Notes under the pieces: generated by a model
What the model was told of the DNA's origin: nothing
Database searches by the model: none
What the model saw: only the letters and a program-made list of their open reading frames with translations
Shown here: positions 1,084 to 41,722 of the stretch, in pieces
How positions within the stretch are numbered: position 1 is the first letter of the stretch
Layout of the letters: each line of letters starts with the position of its first letter
Translations under genes and position numbers: made by a program
Source of the DNA: a virus
Taxonomy: Duplodnaviria > Heunggongvirae > Uroviricota > Caudoviricetes
Virus record (IMG/VR): IMGVR_UViG_2541047907_000004
Location: 1-43,411 of that record
DNA length: 43,411 nucleotides
Reading direction: 5' to 3' (one strand)

Positions 1084-1244
1084 TTTATCAGTTCGCTCCC
1101 ATCCGTACCAGTCCGCAAAATCCCCTGAATATCAAGCTTTCCGTAGATTTACAGTTCGTAATGGTTCGCGTCAGATCGTTGACAGCCGCACTCCATGACG
1201 GGTAAAAAGTGGATAAAATAATTTTACCCACCGGATTTTTACCC

Positions 1245-2402
1245 ATGCTCACCGTTAAGCAGATTGAAGCAGCAAAGCCGAAAGAAAAACCATACCGCCT
1301 TCTCGATGGTAATGGCCTGTACCTTTATGTCCCTGTATCAGGGAAAAAGGTATGGCAACTTCGCTACAAGATTGACGGTAAGGAGAAAATCCTGACTGTC
1401 GGAAAATATCCGCTTATGACTTTGCAGGAAGCAAGGGATAAAGCATGGACCGCGAGGAAAGACATCTCGGTTGGCATCGATCCGGTAAAGGCGAAAAAGG
1501 CTTCGTCTAACAACAATTCATTTAGTGCGATTTACAAGGAATGGTACGAGCACAAGAAGCAAGTCTGGTCAGTAGGCTATGCAACTGAACTTGCCAAAAT
1601 GTTTGATGACGACATTTTACCCATCATCGGCGGTCTTGAGATTCAGGATATTGAGCCGATGCAACTGCTGGAAGTAATCCGCAGATTTGAAGATCGCGGT
1701 GCAATGGAGCGAGCCAACAAAGCCCGCAGAAGATGCGGCGAGGTTTTCCGTTACGCTATTGTCACCGGCAGGGCTAAATATAACCCGGCACCTGACCTTG
1801 CTGACGCCATGAAGGGGTACCGCAAGAAGAACTTCCCGTTTCTTCCTGCAGACCAGATCCCGGCATTCAATAAAGCACTAGCAACATTTTCAGGAAGTAT
1901 CGTATCGCTCATTGCCACCAAGGTTTTACGCTACACTGCCCTAAGAACGAAAGAGCTTCGTTCCATGCTATGGAAGAACGTCGATTTTGAAAACAGGATT
2001 ATCACCATCGACGCCAGTGTGATGAAAGGACGCAAAATTCATGTGGTCCCGATGTCAGACCAGGTGGTTGAACTTCTCACTACGTTAAGCTCCATCACCA
2101 AACCAGTATCAGAGTTTGTTTTTGCCGGGCGCAACGATAAGAAGAAGCCAATCTGCGAAAATGCGGTACTGCTTGTGATCAAACAAATCGGCTATGAAGG
2201 TCTGGAAAGCGGTCACGGATTCAGGCATGAATTCAGCACGATTATGAACGAGCACGAATGGCCTGCTGACGCTATTGAAGTGCAACTGGCACATGCCAAC
2301 GGCGGATCTGTGCGTGGGATTTACAACCATGCTCAGTATCTCGATAAGCGCAGAGAAATGATGCAGTGGTGGGCGGATTGGCTTGATGAAAAGGTGGAGT
2401 AA
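1245..2402 (+). CDS. intS: Tyrosine integrase, P4-like family (IntS-like)
   Basis: 385-aa protein from ATG 1245 (MLTVKQIEAAKPKEKPYRLLDGNGLYLYV...), matching my memory of K-12 IntS; the longest ORF begins at GTG 1209; C-terminal catalytic region with conserved R...HxxR...Y pattern; directly downstream of argW. Confidence 0.9.
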   Translation: MLTVKQIEAAKPKEKPYRLLDGNGLYLYVPVSGKKVWQLRYKIDGKEKILTVGKYPLMTLQEARDKAWTARKDISVGIDPVKAKKASSNNNSFSAIYKEWYEHKKQVWSVGYATELAKMFDDDILPIIGGLEIQDIEPMQLLEVIRRFEDRGAMERANKARRRCGEVFRYAIVTGRAKYNPAPDLADAMKGYRKKNFPFLPADQIPAFNKALATFSGSIVSLIATKVLRYTALRTKELRSMLWKNVDFENRIITIDASVMKGRKIHVVPMSDQVVELLTTLSSITKPVSEFVFAGRNDKKKPICENAVLLVIKQIGYEGLESGHGFRHEFSTIMNEHEWPADAIEVQLAHANGGSVRGIYNHAQYLDKRREMMQWWADWLDEKVE

Positions 2403-2432
2403 TCCACCTGAACCACTATCGGAATAACACAA

Positions 2433-2462
2433 AGCCCTGCACTCCAGTGCAAGGCTTATTTA
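2433..2462. terminator. Putative bidirectional intrinsic terminator between convergent intS and tailspike genes
   Basis: Imperfect hairpin agccctgcact/agtgcaaggct flanked by an A-run upstream and tatttatt downstream. Confidence 0.4.
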
Positions 2463-2465
2463 TTG

Positions 2466-4547
2466 TCAATTTATTGATAACATTTGCGCATTTGTCCCAA
2501 TTTTTGCAAATGTTGCAACTTTCCATGATGCGCCAGCAATGTCATTGCCTGAAATTGTAATTATATTGCCATCAGTTCCTGGTGCTTTGTTATTACCGAT
2601 AGTAGTCTTACCATCAATGTTTATTATTGTAATTTTCTGCCCTGGTGAGATGTAACGAAGTCTAGACAGCGTTGTATTCGATGCTTGGCTGATTGTTGCT
2701 TGTGATGTATGGGTTACTACAGGAGCCACACCAGTTATTGTATTAAAAGAACTTCCCGTCCCCCTAAACATTACACCAAAGTATATATTTTGTGTGCATA
2801 TAATCAATCTATCACCAACACCGGGGTATATTAATGATGGATCATACGCCATTTTATAGTTATTTGTTTCATGATATGTATTTTTTAGTAACAACACCTC
2901 AGCGCCAGATCCAGCTTTAACTCGCGGAGGTGTAGAGCAATAAAAATCAGCATATGATAGTAGGTCGAACATATAAGATGTAACTAAACTATTTGGATGT
3001 TCGATATCAACCCCACCTTCAAAGAATATGCTACCTGAACTTGTGCAAAAAGCTGTTCTTGGCTGCTGAGGTGATGAATTTATGTTTCTATATTTAAACG
3101 ATCCCATTACTGTAAGTGCCGCTTCTCCTGAAGACTGAAGACATGCTTGCTTAATTACCCCTTGCTGATTTGCAGTGATGTTTATGATGCCAAACTTGAC
3201 GTCAGTCCCAGCACCAACGCACAATATATTGTATGCACTAGGATCTTGACCAGGACCGGTGAAATTGGCATTGACATCACACACGCAGTTAACAGACCCA
3301 ACTGATCCTGTAGCACCATCTAAGAAATAAGAAATAGAAGAAAGACCAATACCGGATATACTCTCTATTCTAAAACCTGCTGTAGTATGAAGTTTTACTG
3401 GTGAGCACGCCAGAGGAGAGCCATCTACATATATTTCACCACAATAAAAACCCTTACCATGGCCATTTGTGTACAATGCATGACCTTCATGACCTTGCGA
3501 TGCAGTGATGTTTTTGTGATAAATACTACCTATGCGCTGATTATCAAATACAACTCCAAATACCCCGAAATCAACAGTATTAAAAATAGCTTTATCTATT
3601 TTCGCAGACACTCCTGTGAACCACACACCAGCAATAAACCCATAAACATCAATTGTATCTATATAGAACCCTGATACATCTCTATTTTCGTAATAATTCA
3701 TCCAAATTGACGCCCCATAAGATTTCCAGTCTCCAGATGTGACGTATGAATAACCGAGGGTGTTACTGCTTATAACAGCCGTTCTATCACCATTGTACTC
3801 AAACTTCCAGTATCCGAGCATTTTAACACGTGGCGTACGTACCTCAAATACAGGATACCCCCACAGCAATTGCTCAAAGATAGCATTATCAGAAATTAGA
3901 ACCATGTCAGGATTTGGAATTATAATCCACCCAGATATAGTGTATTTTAGATTTCCAAATTCTATTCTCTTTGCACCGCTATTTAGAGCAGCATTAATTG
4001 CTGCCATATCAGCAATGTAATCGCCAACACCAATAGAACCATGTTCTGCAAAGTCGGTAACAGATACTGTTTCTGAGTTTTTATCGTGTTGTGTACGTAG
4101 AACTGAGCCAACGAAAGGTTGCTTAACGCCAAGCATTGCATCACCTTTCGAGTCATCTTCAGCATATACTCCTGTTTGGGATAACTGCTGAAGAAGATTT
4201 GGTCCGAACTGATCAGGGTCATACTTCAGCACATTAGGAAAATAGAACTGCTGCGCACCATATGCATCATAAACAGCCATCGAATGACCTTGCACGGTTA
4301 CAAACTTGGCAATCTGTCCGTTATATACAGGATAACCAGCAGCGTTGATAACTATTGGCTGCGCCACCTGAACATGAGAGCCATCTTCTCGTTCCAGATA
4401 TACAGGGATCTGGTTTTCTGGATTTACCGGGTCAGTGTCAATTTTACCGATATAAATTTTGCCATTGGCAACCGCTTTAAAAGAACGCGCCATAGTGAAG
4501 AGTTGCGATGGCATACTCACTACAACATTGGCTGTAATGTCTGTCAT
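2466..4547 (-). CDS. Tailspike protein: P22 gp9-like N-terminal head-binding domain plus a divergent receptor-binding/enzymatic domain
   Basis: 693 aa; N-terminus [50 protein letters not shown]... closely matches remembered P22 tailspike N-terminus; the remainder is G/S/T/N-rich beta-helix-like and not P22-like. Confidence 0.85.
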
Positions 4548-4604
4548 TTAATTTGCTCCAGATACAAGGAATCGCCGCAGCATGGCGACGGTGAATTTTG
4601 GGCA

Positions 4605-4647: not shown

Positions 4648-5571
4648 TCAGTAGTTATGTACTGAAGGAGGTAATTCTTTATTCTTAAGTCTCATCCATG
4701 CGGAAAGATTCGTTGGTCCGTCTGGCTCATTAATATCAACATCTCGTGTGTGATTGATTAAAACGTCTCTCGCCATTCCGATAACATACGAGAATTCATG
4801 ACCGTAGTCGTAGCATCTGCCGGAATAGTTCGATTGAATTTGTTTTAATGCCGGATACAGTTCGCGGAATAATGCCTGTGAGCGGTTGGCATAATCCCAT
4901 AACCATACAAGGCTGTTTGCTTCTTTTGCAGAAAGCTCGTTTGCCTTCTTCTCTTGTTTGCCGATGAACTCACCTTCAAGTGGAACTCGAGCTGCAAGTG
5001 ACAGTGCTTCTGTAAACTGCTCCTCACTGATTTCTTTGTACGAACATCCAAAATGGGATTTCAGTGACGACCACATGGTGATCATCGCCTTCGCCTGTTT
5101 TTCTTTTGGCAGAGACTGACCGCGACTCATGACGAGTTGTTTAATGGTTTCCTGCTGTTCAGTGGTGATTTTACCCGGCAACGCCTTTTTAGCTTTGCGC
5201 GGGTTAACTACATGGCCTTTAGTCCAGTATTCGTAGAGCACATCGTCACACTCTTCCTGATACTGGATTACCTTGTCGCGGATTTCAGGGCGGACTTTGT
5301 TAGGGCTGATGGTTTGCAGCCAGCCATTCAGTTTACGTAAAGCAAGGCAAATCATGGTCTGCACACCGCCAACTGAAGGTATTGCGATTTCCACAATACC
5401 TTTAGCAAATCTTTGTTTTAACTTTGTAAACTGTGAAGCCCAATCCATACCCATACCTTCAACGATAGGTTTCATTGGGGTGTACGGCTCACCGTTGTGA
5501 TTGACAACATAAAGCTCTGCGCCGTGGAATGGTACATTGATAGTAGATACTGCTGTTGCTATACTTTTCAT
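4648..5571 (-). CDS. ant: Antirepressor (Ant-like; AntA N-terminal plus KilAC-like C-terminal organisation)
   Basis: 307-aa ORF immediately downstream of arc and upstream of the tailspike, the position of P22 ant; sequence-level assignment is from gene order and general antirepressor features, not exact recall. Confidence 0.6.
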
Positions 5572-5640
5572 GTCGTTAATTCCTATGCGTGGTTTTACGA
5601 TACCGAAGCCCTGACTGTTCCAGCAGTTGGGGCTTCAACT

Positions 5641-5802
5641 TTACGCGCCAATGCGCCCTTCCTTCTTAAAGCTTTCCATTACTCTCTGATAAATCTCAGA
5701 GTTAACAGACCGACCATTCTCTTCCGCCACCTTGCGGACCAAATCCAATACTTCTTTAGGCCACCGCAAATTGAACTGCGGCATTTTGCTCATTCCTTTC
5801 AT
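5641..5802 (-). CDS. arc: Arc repressor (ribbon-helix-helix)
   Basis: 53 aa MKGMSKMPQFNLRWPKEVLDLVRKVAEENGRSVNSEIYQRVMESFKKEGRIGA, essentially the remembered P22 Arc sequence; the ORF-track ORF extends upstream but the Arc start is ATG at 5802. Confidence 0.9.
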   Translation of the reverse strand: MKGMSKMPQFNLRWPKEVLDLVRKVAEENGRSVNSEIYQRVMESFKKEGRIGA

Positions 5803-5818
5803 ATTCACCTCACAATAT

Positions 5819-5865
5819 GGGTCCACCGTGGACCTATTGAGAATATAGTAGAGTGCTTCTATCAT
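5819..5865. promoter_or_regulatory. immI control region: Mnt operator palindrome (gggtccaccgtggacct, 5819-5835) and Arc operator (atagtagagtgcttctatcat, 5845-5865) between divergent arc and mnt
   Basis: Perfect inverted repeat GGTCCACCGTGGACC and the 21-bp ATAGTAGAGTGCTTCTATCAT motif, both matching remembered P22 Omnt and Oarc. Confidence 0.75.
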
Positions 5866-5892
5866 GTCAATACACTAACTTGGAGTGATGGC

Positions 5893-6147
5893 ATGGCTAG
5901 AGATGATCCGCACTTTAACTTCCGTATGCCTATGGAAGTAAGGGAGAAATTAAAATTCAGGGCGGAGGCGAATGGGAGATCAATGAACTCCGAGTTGTTA
6001 CAAATCGTCCAAGATGCTCTATCAAAACCATCGCCTGTGACTGGCTATCGCGACGAAGCTGAACGCTTGGCTGATCAGCAGGCAGAGCAGTTCAAGACTG
6101 TTGTGTTTGAGACACTTAAAAAGATTTATGGCAAGGATGATAAATAA
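5893..6147 (+). CDS. mnt: Mnt repressor (maintenance of lysogeny; ribbon-helix-helix)
   Basis: 84 aa MARDDPHFNFRMPMEVREKLKFRAEANGRSMNSELLQIVQDALSKPSPVTGY..., matching remembered P22 Mnt; divergent from arc. Confidence 0.9.
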   Translation: MARDDPHFNFRMPMEVREKLKFRAEANGRSMNSELLQIVQDALSKPSPVTGYRDEAERLADQQAEQFKTVVFETLKKIYGKDDK

Positions 6148-6683
6148 TGCTGCACACAATTCATTTCTTATGCCCCGTTAACACCGCCACTGTTGGGCAA
6201 CTTCAGAACCACTGTCTCACCGCATTATCTCAAGGCGCAACTGAATTAAATATCCATATATCAAGTCAGGGAGGGGAAACTGCCGCTGGTTTTACTGCGT
6301 ATAACTTTCTTAAGTCACTCCCTGTTGCCGTTAGAACTCACAACATAAGCAATGTTGAATCCATAGCTAATATCGTTTTCCTGGCTGGCTCAGAACGTTT
6401 CGCAAACCCATTATCAAGATTCCTGTTACATCCTCTATTATGGGGCTTTGCCACCCCAGCCGCCGACCATGCCAGATTGAGAGAGTACGGGAAATGCCTC
6501 GATAACGATCTTGATCGCTTCGTTGAGACGTTCAATATCGACATCGGAACCCATATTAGGTGGGCATCCCTGATAGCAGACTCGACCATTTTGGATGCTA
6601 ACAAGGCTCTTGAGCATGGCATAATTAATTCCATAAAAACTGCAAGGCTGGTATCCAATCAGGCAAACTGGTGGGTTGTTTGA
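6147..6683 (+). CDS. ClpP-like (S14 family) serine peptidase-fold protein, translationally coupled to mnt
   Basis: 178 aa; ATG overlaps the mnt stop (TAATG); blocks HISSQGG, ISNVESIANIVFLAG and SRFLLHPLLWG align with ClpP YINSPGG, GQAASMGAFLLTAG and SRVMIHQPLGG (from memory), with Ser and His at triad positions. Confidence 0.6.
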   Translation: MLHTIHFLCPVNTATVGQLQNHCLTALSQGATELNIHISSQGGETAAGFTAYNFLKSLPVAVRTHNISNVESIANIVFLAGSERFANPLSRFLLHPLLWGFATPAADHARLREYGKCLDNDLDRFVETFNIDIGTHIRWASLIADSTILDANKALEHGIINSIKTARLVSNQANWWVV

Positions 6684-6760
6684 TGGGTAAATCATGATTA
6701 CTCCTATGGCCGGAAAGATTCGCATCCTTAAATTTAGTGAGCAAGGATTACCATCACACC

Positions 6761-6946
6761 TCAACAGCTTCCGCGTCCCTGAGTAATTCTGTCGCGGATT
6801 TGCTTCTTACGGTGGTTTAAGCTGGAGAGCTTGGCTTCTGCTTCTGATATTTGCGCATCAAGATCTTTAAGCTCAAGATCTGAAAGTCGCTGGTCAAGCA
6901 GGGTTTGGTTCAACTCAATGTTGTTCAGGCGTTCTTCTATGGTCAT
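6761..6946 (-). CDS. Small coiled-coil protein (61 aa), unknown function
   Basis: ATG preceded by AGGAG RBS; sequence MTIEERLNNIELNQTLLDQRLSDLELKDLDAQISEAEAKL... has heptad-like repeats; convergent with the ClpP-like gene. Confidence 0.4.
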   Translation of the reverse strand: MTIEERLNNIELNQTLLDQRLSDLELKDLDAQISEAEAKLSSLNHRKKQIRDRITQGRGSC

Positions 6947-7087
6947 GATTTCTCCTTGTTGAGGTTGATGTGAAACGATTGATTGTATACGCACTCTTTT
7001 GTTAGCTAGTAGCTTTGCTTAATCGCAAGATAAAGTTTCTGATTAATCCCTAAAAATCAAAAAATAAAGTTAAAACAGGTACATGAT

Positions 7088-7291
7088 ATGGAATGGATCA
7101 TAGGATTTGTTGTTCTTATCTTCATAGCCAGTATGTTTAAACCAAGAAGTTGCGATATCTGTGGTGCTGGATTTAAGAAAAAGTACTTCACATGGACTAT
7201 CGATGGAAAGAAACAGCATCTTTGTCCGTACTGCAACAGTAAAATGGAGAGACGCAACAGCGATAGACGCTTTAAGGATCGATTTGGTTAA
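7088..7291 (+). CDS. Small membrane-anchored zinc-ribbon protein (67 aa), unknown function
   Basis: N-terminal hydrophobic segment IIGFVVLIFIASMF followed by CxxC...CxxC (CDICGAG...CPYCNS); followed by a strong terminator. Confidence 0.45.
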   Translation: MEWIIGFVVLIFIASMFKPRSCDICGAGFKKKYFTWTIDGKKQHLCPYCNSKMERRNSDRRFKDRFG

Positions 7292-7306
7292 CCATTTTAT
7301 CTCCAA

Positions 7307-7337
7307 CAAAAAAACCCACCTGACGGTGGGTTTTATT
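7307..7337. terminator. Bidirectional intrinsic terminator (acccacc-tgac-ggtgggt, A-run upstream, T-run downstream)
   Basis: Perfect 7-bp stem, 4-nt loop, flanked by aaaaaaaa and ttttatt; serves convergent genes 7088-7291 (+) and 7336-7755 (-). Confidence 0.7.
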
Positions 7338-7755
7338 AGTGCTTGTATAGGTTGAACTCTCTATCAAGCCATATAACAAAAAATGTCGATCCAAGACGAT
7401 AACCAACCATGGCTTTCAAATCATCAAATCTAAAAGCCAAGAAATGATCTACGTCTTCCGTTATATGACCGGGGATACCAGCTTTAATTGCACCCCTTGC
7501 AATCTTCTCAAATCCAAGCTTATGCCTACCTTGCTGCTTAATCTCTGCCCATGTTAGTTGACTTAATCTGTATAATTTATCAGCTAAGCCAGCTTTCTCA
7601 TCTTTTTGGCATTTCGTTATGCAGTGAGAGCTTTGGATGTAACAGAATGAAAATTTCGGTTTCTTTTGATCTGAATTCCCCCCTGACTGCGGCCCTAACT
7701 TTAACTTACCTGTAGATTCAGCAGGGGGGATAATCCTTTTAGATTTTCTTGCCAT
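7336..7755 (-). CDS. Unknown 139-aa protein downstream of and coupled to the DUF4065 gene; candidate toxin/effector
   Basis: ATG at 7755 lies 4 nt after the upstream gene's stop; basic N-terminus, C-x6-C-x3-C cluster, beta-rich C-terminus ending ...GYRLGSTFFVIWLDREFNLYKH; the ORF also has an upstream in-frame start at 7830 overlapping the neighbour. Confidence 0.45.
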   Translation of the reverse strand: MARKSKRIIPPAESTGKLKLGPQSGGNSDQKKPKFSFCYIQSSHCITKCQKDEKAGLADKLYRLSQLTWAEIKQQGRHKLGFEKIARGAIKAGIPGHITEDVDHFLAFRFDDLKAMVGYRLGSTFFVIWLDREFNLYKH

Positions 7756-7759
7756 CTCG

Positions 7760-8209
7760 TTAGTTAATCCGAGTTGCAAAGTACTCTGCCATCTCCTTAG
7801 AGCTAATTTCAGAACCACCAACACCCTCAATATAGTTTGATCTCCATGGTGACTCTTCGTGTGTCATGTTCCTCAGTTTCCAGGCAGAAAATTGCCCAAA
7901 AACATCCCAGACTTCTTCTAATAGCTCTAACTGTTCTTCGCTGAATTTTTCAGCATCAAAAGACTCTGGAGAAGGGATAGCTCCATTACCATATTGTTTA
8001 TAACGGCGATAAAGCTCAGGGACAACAGGGCCATGCATCCAAGCTTCCATCTTATTCTGAAAAAGAGGCTCACCAAGCAACGCCAATGAAAACCCCTGAG
8101 CATAGTAAACAAGCTTTTGTAATTTTAAATTAGAGATTGTGTCACCGCTATCCTCGTCACACCGCGACAGGAAGTAGTCGGCGACATCAAAACAAGTAAG
8201 CATGAACAC
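7760..8209 (-). CDS. DUF4065 / Panacea-domain protein (GepA/SocA-like), candidate antitoxin
   Basis: 149 aa; GGAGG RBS 5 nt upstream of ATG; motif block NLKLQKLVYYAQGFSLALLGEPLFQNKMEAWMHGPVVPELYRRYKQYG matches my recollection of the DUF4065 family signature. Confidence 0.65.
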   Translation of the reverse strand: MFMLTCFDVADYFLSRCDEDSGDTISNLKLQKLVYYAQGFSLALLGEPLFQNKMEAWMHGPVVPELYRRYKQYGNGAIPSPESFDAEKFSEEQLELLEEVWDVFGQFSAWKLRNMTHEESPWRSNYIEGVGGSEISSKEMAEYFATRIN

Positions 8210-25106: not shown

Positions 25107-25704
25107 GCTCTACCCCTTCATTGAGGGGATTTGCTCTATTTAATTAGGAATAAGGTCGATTACTGATAGAACAAATCCAGGCTACTGTGTTTAGTAATCA
25201 GATTTGTTCGTGACCGATATGCACGGGCAAAACGGCATGAGGTTGTTAGCGCAACCTCCTGCCACCCACTTTCACGAAGGTCATGTGTAGAAAGCCGCAG
25301 CATAACTATCACTGATGAATTCAGGATAGCCAGTGGCTACGGCCCAGTTTGGGTTGTGGCGGTCGGTGCTGAACTCCGACTTAATGACGATAGGCGTGTA
25401 CCGACGCCTCGTTTTACTTCCTCCGCTTTCACGGCTTCACCCTAGACCAGCTTTACGAAATCCTCGTAAACCTAACCGCGGCAGATATGACCGGCACGGT
25501 GTGCCATATCACGGACCGGCGGGTGTCTCGTTCACCTGATTAACGCATCAGCCTGCGTATTCACCACAACGATAAGAGCACTGCGCGGCACCTTTCACCA
25601 ATTCCGCGAGGTCTGCGGGTTCAATGCCCTTACCTGTTGTGCAAACAAAAAAGCCACCGTTGCAACTTAAGAGTCACTAACGGCAGCTTACCCTCTAATT
25701 ATGG
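25107..25704 (-). promoter_or_regulatory. Late regulatory region between Q and the lysis genes (expected pR', qut and late leader)
   Basis: 598 bp without a convincing ORF, between the Q-like gene and the holin; the site of the Q-dependent late promoter in lambdoid phages. Confidence 0.35.
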
Positions 25705-26223
25705 CTAAATGGCTAATTGCATGTCAAGGTTTTTAACAGCAACATGCTTAACTTTCTCAACACGTTTACGCATTTTGAAAGCATTTTGCATTGGTTGGTA
25801 CAAAACAAATAATGACGCTTTCAGGATGTCGTCAATTTCGTTTCTACAGGTTGCCAGTGAAGGTTTTCTCCATCCCTCGCCACCACGTCCACACATCTTG
25901 CGTGGCTTTGCAGTCGCGTGATAGTAGGATGCAATTGCTCGCTTAGATGAACCATGAGCGTAGTAGCTGAGGAGGATGCCAAAGGCTTTTTTGTCAATGT
26001 ACATGACGGAATCGACGACCTGAGAAATCAACATTCCATCATCATCATTGCACATTGGCCTTGTCATAACTCTTCCCGGCTCTACGCTCTCCATGAACTT
26101 CGCTATTACGCTGCTCATGCGCTTTTCCAGACGACCTGAATAAACCCATGCGCCCCACAGTTCAAGCCAGCCATTCAGCCACTCGAGCTGCTCTTTGGTG
26201 AGGTTTAGTTCTCTTATGCCCAC
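25705..26223 (-). CDS. Late gene antiterminator Q (Q82/QuuD-type)
   Basis: 172 aa; block [11 protein letters not shown]...[18 protein letters not shown]...LLSYYAHG resembles remembered DLP12 QuuD; GTG start overlapping the ninI end; located just upstream of the late region. Confidence 0.6.
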
Positions 26224-26744
26224 GCGCCTTCTCCCTGTACCTGAATCAATGTGAGGTTTCCGCAGAACACTGCGCCGGTATCGATATACATCTGGTTGGA
26301 AAACTTGAGTGGTTTCACTGCTGGCGTATGACCAAAGATGAACGTGTCCGCGCCTTTGATTTCTTTCACGATCCCGTCTTGTGAGTTGCTGATTCGTTCG
26401 CGGTTCCAGATTACCTGCTGATGATCAACTGGCTTTCCAAACTCGTATTCGTCATAAGGATAATCGGCGTGGCAGATGACATATTTTTTATCTTTGCTCA
26501 CCAGTTCGATGATTAACGGAAGTTCATCTGCTTTATGGGCAAGAGCTTTAGCCAGAATTTCTTTGTCGTAATCGAGATTAAAGAACCAGCCACCGCCATT
26601 AAGCATCCAGTGATTGACGTTTCCGCGCTCTGATAAGCCATCAATCATCATTTGCTCATGGTTTCCACGTACAGCTCTGAACCAGGGGAATGAACCGCCC
26701 CGGGAATCCTGGAGACTAAACTTCCTGAGAAAGAGGTAAACAGG

Positions 26745-27071
26745 ATGACTAAAAATACTCGTTTTTCCCCCGAAGTCCGTCAACGGGCAGTCCGTATGGT
26801 TCTGGAAAGTCAGAGCGAATATGACTCACAATGGGCGACAATTTGTTCCATTGCTCCAAAGATTGGCTGTACGCCGGAGACTCTGCGTGTCTGGGTTCGC
26901 CAGCATGAGCGGGATACCGGGGGCGGTGATGGAGGGCTCACCACCGCTGAACGTCAGCGTCTGAAAGAGCTGGAACGTGAAAATCGTGAACTGCGCCGCA
27001 GTAACGATATCCTTCGCCAGGCTTCCGCTTATTTTGCGAAGGCGGAGTTCGACCGCCTCTGGAAAAAATGA
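26745..27071 (+). CDS. IS3-family transposase OrfA (HTH DNA-binding)
   Basis: 108 aa [22 protein letters not shown]... with a leucine-zipper-like C-terminus. Confidence 0.9.
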
Positions 27072-27958
27072 TGCCACTGCTGGATAAGCTGCGTGAGCAG
27101 TACGGGGTCGGACCGCTATGCAGCGAACTGCATATTGCCCCGTCAACGTATTACCACTGTCAGCAACAGCGACATCATCCGGATAAACGCAGTGCCCGTG
27201 CGCAGCGCGATGACTGGCTGAAGAAAGAGATACAGCGCGTATACGATGAAAATCACAAGGTATACGGTGTGCGTAAAGTCTGGCGTCAGTTGTTACGGGA
27301 AGGTATCAGAGTGGCCAGATGCACTGTGGCACGTCTCATGGCGGTTATGGGACTTGCCGGTGTTCTCCGGGGTAAAAAGGTCCGTACGACCATCAGCCGG
27401 AAAGCCGTTGCCGCAGGCGACCGCGTAAACCGTCAGTTCGTGGCAGAACGACCTGACCAGCTGTGGGTGGCTGATTTTACTTACGTCAGCACATGGCGGG
27501 GCTTCGTCTATGTGGCGTTCATCATTGATGTGTTTGCCGGATACATCGTGGGGTGGCGGGTCTCATCGTCCATGGAAACGACATTCGTGCTGGATGCACT
27601 GGAGCAGGCGTTATGGGCCCGTCGACCGTCCGGCACGGTCCATCACAGTGATAAAGGTTCTCAGTATGTATCGCTGGCCTACACACAGCGGCTTAAGGAA
27701 GCCGGATTACTGGCATCAACAGGAAGTACAGGCGACTCGTATGACAACGCGATGGCGGAGAGCATCAATGGTCTTTACAAAGCGGAGGTAATACACCGTA
27801 AGAGCTGGAAAAACCGTGCAGAAGTGGAACTGGCCACACTCACGTGGGTGGACTGGTATAACAATCGACGATTGCTGGAAAGGCTGGGCCATACTCCTCC
27901 GGCAGAAGCAGAAAAAGCTTATTATGCTTCCATCGGAAACGATGATCTGGCAGCCTGA
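27068..27958 (+). CDS. IS3-family transposase OrfB (DDE catalytic domain)
   Basis: 296 aa; overlaps OrfA in the -1 frame across an A6 run (27063-27068), consistent with programmed frameshifting to an OrfAB fusion. Confidence 0.9.
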
Positions 27959-28175
27959 GTTCACAGATAAAACACTCTCCAGGAAACCCGGGGCGGTTCA
28001 GAATGTGATTAATTCCAGGCATTCAACGTTCTCTGCACCACGATCAACCAAATCGCCCACCGAGATAAGCAGGTCTTTTTCGTTGTCGAATCCAATCGTA
28101 TCCAGTTTGTTCATCAGGTTCGTGTAGCATCCGTGCAGATCGGCAACTACCCAAATATTTCGGTATTTGCTGCCA

Positions 28176-28382
28176 TCAATTCTTTCGTAATAGCGCATCT
28201 CTTTCACTCCATCCGCGATGAACCATGAGAACGTCGTTGACGATGGCGTGCATTTTCCCGTCTTTATCATCAACGTATTTTCTGACCGTACCGCGACTAC
28301 ATTTCAGTCTGCGTGCTACTTCTGTCTGGTTTCCGTATGCCTCAACGAGCATGTCTGGAATGGTTTTTACTGAGAACGTCAT
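28176..28382 (-). CDS. ninH: NinH
   Basis: 68 aa [37 protein letters not shown]..., matching remembered lambda NinH. Confidence 0.85.
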
Positions 28383-28981
28383 GCGGCCTCACTTCTGCTA
28401 TTTCGCAGGTCTTTGAGTTTCTGTTGGTACTCTGCCTTGATCGCCTTGCACTCTTCGATAGTCCAGCGATGGCGGTTATGGTTTGATTCGATTTCGTCTA
28501 CTGCTTCCTGCCCGATTCGGTTAATCAGTTCGACGCGATACGGAACGAGATTTCCGCTTTTATGCTGGTTGCACACCACGCATTGCTTGTGAATATTGCG
28601 TTCATCAAATCGGAGTTGAGGTGCCGCAGAAGTTGTCCGGTAATGTCCGGCATCCCACTGAGCAGACGTGAGCGTTCCGCACGAGATACATGGTAAGTCG
28701 CGGTCTCTTTCTCTGATGAAGGCGTTTACGGCTTGTTGGGCTTGTTTAATCCAGTAACTGCGGGGCTTTAAGGCGAGTTTTCGAATCTTAAGTTTATCTT
28801 TCTGTTTCTGCTCCTCTCGTCGCCGTTTCTTCTCTGCTGCTTTTTCCGCTTTTTCGCGTTCTTTGCTTCGTCGTTCGAGTGCTATCTTTGTTCCACAAAT
28901 CTCATTACACCAATATTGATTTTGATATTTTGGTATAAACCATTCATTGCAACATTTACATTTCCTTCGATAGATTCGCAT
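28379..28981 (-). CDS. ninG: NinG (Rap-like recombination protein), starting at a downstream ATG with its own RBS
   Basis: From [15 protein letters not shown]... the C-terminal ~165 aa ([15 protein letters not shown]... onward) match remembered lambda NinG; AAAGGAG RBS 5 nt upstream of the ATG. Confidence 0.8.
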
Positions 28982-29522
28982 AAGTGCTCCTTTCGTTGCC
29001 GGAAAAATCACCGTAATACTTATCTCGGGCTTCTTCAGCAACTAGTACCGCTAACTCCAGATCATCAAAGCATCCGAAGTGTTTACTCTTGCCATGGAAA
29101 CCTAGCCTAACATTCCATTTTTTCTGTCGTTTGTGCCAAGTAACTCCTCTGCAACCTGATTTGCTGTTCTTTCGGATCCTTATATTTCTTGAATTTTCTA
29201 TTGGCAGGCATTCTCTTAAATTTTCTGGCCTATTGTCGGTCCTAATTCCATTAACGTGGTCAATTTGACCAGCAGGCCAGCGATTATGAGTTATGTAAAA
29301 AACTAAGATGTGAGTTTTATATCTACGCCCATCTATCATGATCATTGAATAACCGTTGGAATCAAAAGTTCCAGCAACACTATTTAATGCTATCCTTCCC
29401 TGAGTGGGAACTTTCCATCTAAATACCCCGGTAGATTTATCGAAACTTAGTAACTCAAATATCCTTTTAACAGTTAAATCTTCTCTTTTACGGTTACATC
29501 GTCTTCGCGCTGGTTTAGCCAT
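28956..29522 (-). CDS. HNH homing-type endonuclease with C-terminal AP2-like DNA-binding domain
   Basis: 188 aa; HNH_3-like core ([16 protein letters not shown]...NRPENL) and AP2-like block ([31 protein letters not shown]); its first 9 codons MAKPARRRC equal the lambda NinG N-terminus. Confidence 0.75.
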
Positions 29523-33751: not shown

Positions 33752-33800
33752 GGTGTGGTTTAATTTGATGCCCTTTTTCAGGGCTGGGATGTGTAAGAGC
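33752..33800 (-). promoter_or_regulatory. nutR (boxA and boxB hairpin GCCCTGAAAAAGGGC)
   Basis: Minus-strand sequence AGCTCTTACACATCCCAGCCCTGAAAAAGGGCATCAAATTAAACCACACC matches remembered lambda nutR almost base for base. Confidence 0.8.
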
Positions 33801-33809
33801 TGGAATGTC

Positions 33810-34989: not shown

Positions 34990-35020
34990 TGCTCTTAAAA
35001 ATTTAGCCCTGAAGAAGGGC
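34990..35020 (+). promoter_or_regulatory. nutL (boxA-like TGCTCTTAA and boxB hairpin GCCCTGAAGAAGGGC)
   Basis: Matches remembered lambda nutL boxA/boxB; located in the leader upstream of N. Confidence 0.8.
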
Positions 35021-35130
35021 AGCATTCAAAGCAGAAGGCTTTGAGTAGCGCGAAATGCAGCTGCAAGACAGCAACCGTGGAGATAAGCATCACGGCGCGT
35101 TACTCAAAGCTAACTGACAGGAGAATCCAG

Positions 35131-35457
35131 ATGGATGCACAAACACGCCGCCGCGAACGTCGCGCAGAGAAACAGGCTCAATGGAAAGCAGCAAATCCCC
35201 TGTTGGTTGGGGTAAGCGCAAAACCAGTTAACCGCCCTATTCTCTCGCTGAATCGCAAACCGAAATCACGAGTAGAAAGCGCACTGAATCCGATAGACCT
35301 TACGGTGCTGGCTGAATACCACGAACAGATTGAAAGCAACCTGCAACGTATTGAGCGCAAGAATCAGCGCACATGGTACAGCAAGCCACGCAGTGAAATG
35401 GGGGTGACTTGTGTTGGTCGCCAGAAAATGAAATTAGGCAGCAAACCACTTATTTGA
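35131..35457 (+). CDS. N: Antitermination protein N
   Basis: MDAQTRRRERRAEKQAQWKAANPLLVGVSAKPVNRPILSLNRKPKSRVESALNPIDLTVLAEYH... matching remembered lambda N; AGGAGA RBS. Confidence 0.9.
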   Translation: MDAQTRRRERRAEKQAQWKAANPLLVGVSAKPVNRPILSLNRKPKSRVESALNPIDLTVLAEYHEQIESNLQRIERKNQRTWYSKPRSEMGVTCVGRQKMKLGSKPLI

Positions 35458-41707: not shown

Positions 41708-41722
41708 CTGCAGGGGACACCA
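41708..41722 (+). repeat. attR core (CTGCAGGGGACACCA)
   Basis: Exact 15-bp repeat of the tRNA 3' end including CCA. Confidence 0.75.

Follow-up and report, generated by a model that had tools for sequence, protein, structure and literature searches.

The window analysed here, a 43,411-nt stretch of DNA, contains a prophage that carries the att core CTGCAGGGGACACCA at 1069 and again at 41708 and is integrated at the 3′ end of a tRNA-Arg(CCT) gene (1009-1083; argW). Its structural module shares 97.7% identity with genes 1-12 of Sf6 over 10,577 bp. Judged by its sequence, the element is an Sf6-like prophage of the P22 family whose host, of E. coli type, carries it at argW. In its nin region, a complete insertion sequence (IS) separates two pieces of the ninI phosphatase gene just upstream of the late antiterminator gene Q. 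The features of the locus and of the associated control sites are as follows.

1069-41722: Sf6-like (P22-like, Lederbergvirus-type) prophage with the att core at either end; a unit of 40,639 bp including the IS.
25698-25727, minus strand: pR′-like late promoter, TTGACA-18-CATAAT (11/12 consensus), at the 3′ end of Q; its place matches that of the annotated Sf6 pR′.
25705-26223, minus strand: intact late antiterminator Q of the phage-21/Sf6 type (Pfam Phage_antitermQ, 90 bits).
26214-26690, minus strand: ninI 3′ fragment, codons 66-223 plus stop, without a start codon of its own.
26688-26690: left GAA of the target-site duplication; the minus strand reads TTC here, the codon of Phe66.
26691-28000, plus strand: complete IS629-type insertion sequence of the IS3 family, 1310 bp, gapless over 1310/1310 bp against the phage 2851 copy.
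26691-26715, plus strand: left terminal inverted repeat (IRL), TGAACCGCCCCGGGAATCCTGGAGA.
26745-27071, plus strand: orfA, 108 aa, HTH_Tnp_1 DNA-binding protein (Pfam PF01527, 49 bits).
27026-27142, plus strand: ALIL (apical-loop/internal-loop) frameshift-stimulating pseudoknot region (Rfam RF01497, 120.2 bits).
27063-27068, plus strand: A6 slippery run, read as AAA-AAA in the orfA frame and followed by the orfA UGA stop.
27068-27958, plus strand: orfB, 296 aa, HTH_21 plus rve (DDE) catalytic domain (Pfam rve, 97 bits).
27976-28000, plus strand: right terminal inverted repeat (IRR), terminal letters ...GGGGCGGTTCA, complementary to IRL.
28001-28003: right copy of the target-site duplication, GAA.
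28001-28198, minus strand: ninI 5′ fragment, codons 1-66, of a lambda-type Ser/Thr phosphatase, ending ...LELITF.
28176-28382, minus strand: intact ninH (Pfam Phage_NinH, 149.5 bits), directly upstream of ninI in the pR operon.
33770-33801, minus strand: nutR, a boxA-like sequence plus the lambda-identical boxB GCCCTGAAAAAGGGC; 31/32 identical to the annotated Sf6 nutR.
34990-35020: nutL, 29/31 identical to Sf6, with a lambda-identical boxB.
35105-35426, plus strand: gene for the antiterminator N, limited to the stretch that aligns with Sf6 gene 37; its DNA is 97.2% identical to the N region of Sf6.

The IS runs from TGAACCGCCCCGGG to CCCGGGGCGGTTCA, starting with TG and finishing with CA (TGAACC...GGTTCA). 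Its terminal inverted repeats are complementary at 23 of 25 positions (92% over 25 nt by self-BLAST), and GAA stands on both flanks. The two reading frames are open, lie in relative frames 0/-1 and overlap at ATGA. An initial annotation of this DNA had described a complete 1310-bp element with intact OrfA and OrfB, terminal inverted repeats and a 3-bp GAA duplication, all of which we confirm. It had also noted that the A6 run at the OrfA/OrfB overlap fits the -1 frameshift mechanism of IS3 elements. The full-length match to the ALIL pseudoknot (positions 1-117/117; E = 1e-31; gathering score 50) lends this prediction added support, and homologous IS copies carry the RefSeq label ‘programmed frameshift’. 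A -1 slip on the A6 run would enter orfB at AUG 27068, the exact slip codon being a prediction from the sequence.

The sequence hallmarks of the IS3 family are present, i.e. the 0/-1 ORF pair, a DDE transposase, a frameshift signal and TG...CA ends with a 3-bp duplication. Against the IS3 transposase model of NCBIfam (NF033516; cutoff 160), OrfB scored 314.6 bits; a modelled OrfAB protein of 404 aa gave 365.3 bits across the whole model (1-369/369), of which orfA covers 1-86; the competing IS481 model reached 85 bits, under its cutoff of 224. By the ISfinder convention, isoforms share at least 95% nucleotide identity with the reference across the full length. Our element is, over 1310/1310 bp and without gaps, 96.2% identical to the phage 2851 copy, annotated as IS629 by its authors, and 95.4% identical to an O157 copy. 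On these percentages, and with a name that follows author and RefSeq annotations, the element is probably an IS629 isoform, in line with its earlier assignment as an IS629-like member of the IS3 family. Subtypes of IS629 differ from each other by 4-5%, and IS1203 and IS3411 are isoforms (Rump et al., PMC3271280). Like IS629, IS1203 and IS3411, the element is 1310 bp long, has the same orfA/orfB layout with an A6-UGA-AUG overlap and an ALIL pseudoknot, and combines TG...CA ends with a duplication of 3 bp; it diverges from the O157-associated IS629 copies (n = 2) by 4-5%, which equals the distance between IS629 subtypes (PMC3271280).

The presence of an IS629-type element had been read as a hint of an EHEC-like host background. 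However, IS629-family DNA matched in 4264 of 5426 complete E. coli genomes, at a median of four places per genome, and copies 100% identical to ours are found in many non-EHEC E. coli, including poultry and human non-O157 strains, as well as on plasmids of E. coli and Salmonella. The exact sequence is thus of a type common in non-O157 E. coli and on Salmonella plasmids, whereas the two O157-associated copies are only 95.4-96.2% identical, and the EHEC-like hint is therefore unsupported. The many identical copies elsewhere also mark this IS as undecayed. No second IS fragment was found elsewhere within the window.

To reconstruct the empty site, the IS and one GAA were deleted from 26214-28198 (minus strand). 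The restored ninI gene is 672 bp long and encodes 223 aa with a Pfam Metallophos match (61.5 bits). Its neighbours are ninH and Q, as for NinI of lambda (orf221), and the product aligned to this Ser/Thr phosphatase (PDB 1G5B) over residues 1-221 with E = 7e-151 and 8 differences in 221 positions (∼96% identity). In contrast to lambda, the gene is interrupted after codon 66, and the allele encodes an unusual G19A change, Ala for Gly at position 19, in the conserved GDxHG motif. The empty-site reconstruction aligned without gaps to an E. coli 401651 prophage with an uninterrupted gene (1587 bp, 98.4% identity), and the Sf6 alignment likewise overlaps at the IS junction. Realignment, which the initial annotation had named as the test of collinearity, thus shows the flanking fragments to be collinear, and the 3-bp repeat reflects genuine target duplication rather than a 1-in-64 coincidence. 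The split at LELITF|FPWFRAV, with Q immediately downstream, is likewise as first described. The insertion had been placed within a Phe codon; the site is indeed Phe66, but the duplicated GAA is the exact in-frame TTC codon, so that each fragment retains a complete Phe codon.

The N-terminal fragment stops at a TGA contributed by the IS end (27998-28000). Its 66 amino acids include GDxHG and GDxxDR, while GNHE and the His ligands that come after it are encoded by the 3′ fragment, which lacks a start codon; hence there is no uninterrupted frame with all metal-ligand motifs on one polypeptide. With motifs I and II thus parted from motif III and the subsequent His ligands, the phosphatase is dead, as the initial annotation had concluded. 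ninI is a dispensable accessory gene, known to be nonessential in lambda (PMC10695390).

The IS is oriented antisense to pR transcription, and Q lies downstream of it. RNA polymerase must therefore traverse 1.3 kb of untranslated, C-rich IS RNA (29.5% C versus 24.4% G; local C/G up to 2) before it reaches Q. It had been proposed that Q now depends on transcription through or out of the IS. The first part holds, since pR transcripts must pass through the element. The second part does not: no σ70-like site was detected on the minus strand inside the IS or at its left end, and an outward promoter from IRL driving Q was rejected on this ground. N-modified polymerase classically suppresses IS polarity and passes the natural nin terminators. 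As N, nutL and nutR are present, with nutR positioned upstream of the nin-Q operon, such a polymerase is expected to read through the IS. The 3′ part of ninI, gene 59 (Q) and the pR′/qut region are 98.4% identical to Sf6 at the nucleotide level. Q overlaps the ninI stop by 10 nt, and for this reason lower Q translation might follow the loss of ninI translation; counting against this, Q keeps its own Shine-Dalgarno sequence GGAGAAGG, which together with the GTG start region is retained at the 3′ end of the ninI 3′ fragment.

We propose the following course of events. An apparently active IS629-type element of the IS3 family would have transposed into ninI of an Sf6-like prophage at argW, by analogy with its family through copy-out/paste-in transposition with a circular intermediate (bioRxiv 10.1101/2023.06.07.543989). 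A -1 slip of the ribosome on the A6 run, helped by the ALIL pseudoknot, would yield the OrfAB transposase. The insertion would have duplicated the Phe66 codon, divided the metal-binding motifs and killed the phosphatase, and N-modified RNA polymerase would read through the antisense IS RNA to Q. The prophage is most likely still inducible; any cost would be modest at most, with slower lytic growth and terminal redundancy reduced by 1.3 kb. We regard it as highly probable that these elements hold jointly: an IS629-type insertion that kills the dispensable ninI, read-through by virtue of N, and an inducible prophage with a modest cost. Specifically, a mild cost of the IS to the phage is plausible, while a block of the late genes is not. 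A genome too large for headful packaging was also considered and rejected: at 40,639 bp, it is about the size of the viable P22-like phage L (40,633 bp), and P22 itself, whose value is used here in place of that of Sf6, packages a larger headful of 43.4 kb.

Alternatively, the IS might be a polar block or strong brake on Q, leaving the late genes under-expressed and the prophage locked in or attenuated; this could be brought about by Rho-dependent or intrinsic termination in the antisense IS RNA, or by convergent transposase transcription. Q is last in the pR unit, as established for the N-antiterminated unit of lambda, and in the nin region of lambda, dCas12a roadblocks abolish plaques and are fully polar on Q despite N (PMC10695390), which shows that the Q supply is sensitive to events in the nin region. 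Moreover, since the C-rich antisense IS RNA goes untranslated, and IRR has a weak terminator-like hairpin with a T-tract on the minus strand, some polarity on Q could persist even with N. Yet the number of terminator-like matches in the region, five, does not exceed that expected from shuffled sequence (3.7 ± 1.9), N, nutR and nutL are near-identical to their Sf6 and lambda counterparts, and suppression of IS polarity by N-modified polymerase is textbook knowledge. A comparison is offered by Sf6, whose nin region carries IS911. Loss of this element was repeatedly selected and shortened the lytic cycle, with faster lysis; however, the onset of late transcription, determined by qPCR, was the same with or without it (PMC5630979). 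Sf6 is a viable phage although its IS3-family element precedes Q in the orientation seen here, and phage 2851, in which IS629 lies upstream of ninG and Q and is likewise oriented, has been deposited as a complete phage genome. We therefore consider a polar block unlikely. The earlier suggestion that the insertion may reduce late-gene expression and stabilize the prophage is not supported in view of the same facts, i.e. the presence of N, nutR and nutL, and the viability and unaltered late-transcript timing of IS911-bearing Sf6.

The effect on Q and the phosphatase would be irrelevant if the prophage were a decaying, defective remnant in which the IS is one lesion among several. The G19A change in ninI and the lack of the tRNA genes found after pR′ in Sf6 would fit such decay. 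Against it stand contiguous long ORFs for the terminase, portal, scaffold, coat, head-completion, ejection and tailspike proteins; the presence of an intact int, an att core at each end, a xis/TorI-region match, as well as intact N, the nut sites, replication genes, nin genes and Q; and ORFs at the positions of the lysis genes that partly align to the Sf6 Rz region. A remnant of this kind is very unlikely. The least credible alternative, which we would all but dismiss, is an assembly artefact, in which a repeat-induced misjoin put an IS copy inside the phosphatase gene. IS629-type elements are multi-copy in many genomes, and the exact junction was absent from every other record searched: 300-bp queries spanning it gave only two-piece matches, with the IS at other positions, in 5,426 complete E. 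coli genomes, and exact junction patterns had no match in GTDB species representatives, IMG/VR or JGI metagenomes. However, both junctions coincide with exact IS ends, the 3-bp duplication is perfect and the flanking sequences are collinear down to the single base; misassembly would not generate a target-site duplication.

The insertion into ninI is thus a real but ordinary event: its exact junction is new among the collections searched, while events of this kind are already known. Independent insertions of IS1203/IS629-type elements in or beside the same phosphatase gene occur in E. coli 7784, O157 strain 1130 and 2013C-4830. In E. coli 7784 (NZ_CP018247.1), an IS of this kind, in the relative orientation seen here, splits the gene that directly precedes Q, and RefSeq treats both halves as partial pseudogenes. 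That case differs from ours in the lengths of the fragments (about 345 and 333 bp versus 198 and 477 bp), in the IS1203 label and in the prophage backbone, which has a roi/ant-type nin region. Sf6 likewise has its IS3-family element in a dispensable nin gene, antisense to pR and upstream of a phage-21-type Q, and the two genomes are 97-98% identical in the structural and nin-Q modules. In contrast, the Sf6 element is IS911 (1249 bp) and lies in ninG, two genes upstream of ninI, whereas here the 1310-bp IS629-type element is in ninI itself; Sf6 is a free plaque-forming phage, and our prophage is known from its sequence.

For annotation, the two phosphatase fragments are best joined into a single pseudogene that a mobile element interrupts, and the IS entered as complete, of IS629 type and subject to programmed frameshifting; beyond this, the importance of the locus is small. 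As the junction is unique among the 5,426 E. coli genomes and the GTDB, IMG/VR and JGI collections searched, it could mark a strain or lineage. The prophage is also one more natural case among the few lambdoid genomes, viable or nearly so, in which an IS3-family element lies ahead of Q; such genomes could be used to gauge how well N antitermination buffers IS polarity.

Antisense IS3-family insertions between the replication genes and Q might even constitute a recurrent, selectable ‘brake’ that favours retention of the prophage by the host, an idea we consider improbable. If true, the supply of Q would be delayed or lowered through Rho-dependent polarity or convergent transcription, and precise excision could undo the effect in hosts with an IS-excision enhancer (IEE). 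Examples of this arrangement would be the present prophage, Sf6 with IS911, phage 2851 with IS629, E. coli 7784, O157 strain 1130 and 2013C-4830. As to a bias in IS orientation relative to the phage operon, elements close to the 3′ portion of the phosphatase gene had the same orientation in five genomes and the opposite one in a single genome, counts that reflect too few and non-independent events to indicate a bias.

The window carries a P22-family, Sf6-like prophage, with a 10.6 kb structural module at 97.7% identity to Sf6 and a right host flank (cscB) at 99.9% identity to E. coli. ARAGORN found a sole tRNA gene, the host tRNA-Arg(CCT). From the nin region through to the tail the phage genes lie on the minus strand, while the transposase genes of the insertion sequence (IS) lie on the plus strand, which makes the IS antisense to the early-right (pR) operon. 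Genes follow in the order ninG, ninH, interrupted ninI and the late antiterminator gene Q, and then comes a pR′-like site:

1009-1083, host tRNA-Arg(CCT)
1069 and 41708, Sf6 att core CTGCAGGGGACACCA, the left copy being the 3′ end of tRNA-Arg(CCT)
28379-29041, minus strand, ninG
28176-28382, minus strand, ninH
26214-28198, minus strand, ninI::IS, interrupted lambda-type phosphatase gene
26691-28000, inserted element, 1310 bp
26688-26690 and 28001-28003, direct GAA flanks
25705-26223, minus strand, Q (Pfam Phage_antitermQ, 90 bits)
25727-25698, minus strand, pR′-like site (TTGACA-18-CATAAT)

Removal of the element and one GAA left a sequence that aligned without gaps over 1587 bp (98.4% identity) to a prophage of E. 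coli 401651 that has an uninterrupted phosphatase gene; the alignment to phage Sf6 likewise joined at the insertion junction. The restored ninI ORF spans 672 bp (223 aa), and its product matched the lambda Ser/Thr phosphatase (PDB 1G5B) with E = 7e-151 and 8 differences in 221 residues. These gapless restored-site alignments indicate that the ninI halves are collinear and that the 3-bp GAA repeat is a genuine target-site duplication. The element termini (5′ TGAACCGCCCCGGG, 3′ CCCGGGGCGGTTCA) are complementary at 23 of 25 end positions. Read on the coding strand, the duplication is an in-frame TTC, precisely the codon of Phe66, and the N-terminal fragment runs to ...ECLELITF before a TGA supplied by the IS end. 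The initial annotation had placed the insertion within a Phe codon; the residue was right, but the whole codon is duplicated rather than split.

The coding capacity of the element resides in two ORFs and a structured overlap:

26745-27071, plus strand, orfA, 108 aa, HTH_Tnp_1 domain
27068-27958, plus strand, orfB, 296 aa, HTH_21 and rve (DDE) domains
27026-27142, ALIL pseudoknot, full-length match to Rfam RF01497 (120.2 bits, gathering score 50)

OrfB scored 314.6 bits against the NCBIfam IS3-family transposase equivalog (cutoff 160), and a modelled 404-aa OrfAB fusion matched the NCBIfam IS3-family transposase model end-to-end with 365.3 bits. The orfB frame is -1 relative to orfA; read in the orfA frame, the overlap is UGG AAA AAA UGA, with the orfB AUG beginning 1 base before the UGA. 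In IS3411 and no fewer than 27 further ISs, ALIL has been described as stimulating -1 frameshifting (PMC5009743). RefSeq labels homologous copies 'IS3 family transposase, programmed frameshift' and marks this pseudoknot in them too. As judged in silico, the element displays all the defining IS3-family sequence features that can be tested in this way. Together with the restored-gene alignments and the IS anatomy, these transposase profiles bear out the structure originally proposed.

Over all 1310 bp, the element aligned without gaps to the copy annotated by its authors as IS629 in the Stx2c phage 2851 (96.2% identity) and to that of an O157:H7 Stx2c prophage (95.4%), which are themselves 95.6% identical. 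Since IS629 subtypes lie 4-5% apart, with IS1203 and IS3411 treated as isoforms (Rump et al., PMC3271280), 'IS629-like' seems a fair label. An EHEC-like host background, which had been suggested from the element, is not supported by the available evidence: 100%-identical copies are common in non-O157 E. coli from poultry and humans, chromosomal as well as plasmid-borne, and on Salmonella plasmids, and IS629-family DNA was matched in 4264 of 5426 complete E. coli genomes. If anything, the variant would not be of the O157 type.

The split sets motifs I and II, which we take from the 1G5B literature to be D20, H22 and D49 in lambda phosphatase numbering, apart from GNHE and the His ligands that follow. 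With these metal-ligand motifs separated, the interrupted gene is predicted to be incapable of yielding an active enzyme. In lambda, ninI is nonessential (PMC10695390). Codon 19 (28142-28144, minus strand) encodes Ala in the GDxHG metallophosphoesterase motif (VVADLHG), whereas lambda (1G5B), Sf6, phage 2851, O157 strain 1130 and E. coli 401651 have the conserved Gly; either drift since the inactivation or an uncommon natural variant could account for the change.

As the initial annotation held, pR transcripts must cross the antisense IS before reaching Q. Q and the ninI stop overlap by 10 nt, and the Shine-Dalgarno sequence of Q itself, GGAGAAGG, is still present. The IS RNA within the pR transcript is untranslated and C-rich (29.5% C versus 24.4% G), and a weak hairpin with a T-tract lies in the right inverted repeat on the pR-transcribed (minus) strand; terminator-like matches in the region were not above chance expectation, and no outward promoter from the IS toward Q was seen. 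The N gene is 97% identical to that of Sf6, and both nut sites have a lambda-identical boxB:

33801-33770, minus strand, nutR
34990-35020, nutL

Natural nin terminators are read through by N-modified polymerase, which, by analogy with lambda, would also read through the IS to Q. Sf6 is a viable phage with an IS3-family element, IS911, in ninG, likewise antisense, and in phage 2851 an IS629 copy lies upstream of ninG and Q. Because of N and the nut sites and of these two precedents, a block of Q is disfavoured, and the proposed reduction of late expression and stabilization of the prophage find no support in the available evidence. Experimental evolution of Sf6 repeatedly selected for deletions that removed IS911, and these shortened the time to lysis; qPCR gave the same onset of late transcription with and without IS911 (PMC5630979). 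The best reading is that the insertion is tolerated, with at most a modest cost to lytic growth and no lock on the prophage. We also rejected oversizing of the genome for a P22-type head by the extra 1.3 kb, since the prophage unit including the IS (40,639 bp) is close to the phage L genome (40,633 bp) and below the P22 headful (43.4 kb).

The exact junction was found in none of 5,426 complete E. coli genomes, nor in GTDB species representatives, IMG/VR or JGI metagenomes. An IS of the same group lies inside the homologous phosphatase gene of strain 7784 at a different position (NZ_CP018247.1 2639603-2644049); in O157 strain 1130 one lies between the phosphatase gene and ninG, and in 2013C-4830 one adjoins the phosphatase gene. 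These nearby insertions are independent. By these sequence comparisons the junction is unique among the collections searched, and both the kind of event and the IS are well known. The insertion in ninI is thus real, correctly described and biologically ordinary. The IS1203/IS629-type insertions retrieved in or beside the phosphatase gene just 5′ of Q in other E. coli prophages all lie in the same relative orientation. Five genomes share the IS orientation and one, strain E105, found with an inverted-IS query, has the opposite, a sample too small, and with too little independence between cases, for interpretation.

Elsewhere the prophage departs from Sf6. In Sf6 (Asn and Thr) and in phage-21-type phages, tRNA genes lie just 3′ of pR′, whereas ARAGORN found none downstream of pR′ here (25350-25700). 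The integrase and tailspike genes are directly adjacent (1209-4562), without the O-acetyltransferase (oac) gene that separates them in Sf6. Tailspike similarity to Sf6 is limited to the 5′ head-binding end (82.9% at 4114-4562), and receptor specificity therefore probably differs. A 706-aa ORF (8908-11028, minus strand) in the slot of the largest ejection protein (P22 gp16/Sf6 gp13) lacks both a Pfam match and nucleotide similarity to Sf6, its neighbours being 97.7% identical to Sf6; by this comparison it marks a mosaic boundary within the ejection-protein cluster. Three ORFs (6147-8209) lie between the immI-like region and the ejection-protein genes:

4648-5571, ant (immI-like region)
5497-6147, mnt/arc-like (immI-like region)
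6147-6683, plus strand, ClpP-like ORF
7336-7830, minus strand, ORF without Pfam match, overlapping the next
7760-8209, minus strand, ORF with SocA/Panacea antitoxin domain

The overlapping minus-strand pair may be a cargo module with a toxin-antitoxin or defence role. Finally, an ORF with HNH_3 and AP2 domains, of homing-endonuclease type (28956-29522, minus strand), abuts and overlaps the ninG 5′ end; E. coli 401651, in its related prophage, has an HNH endonuclease at another place in the nin region.
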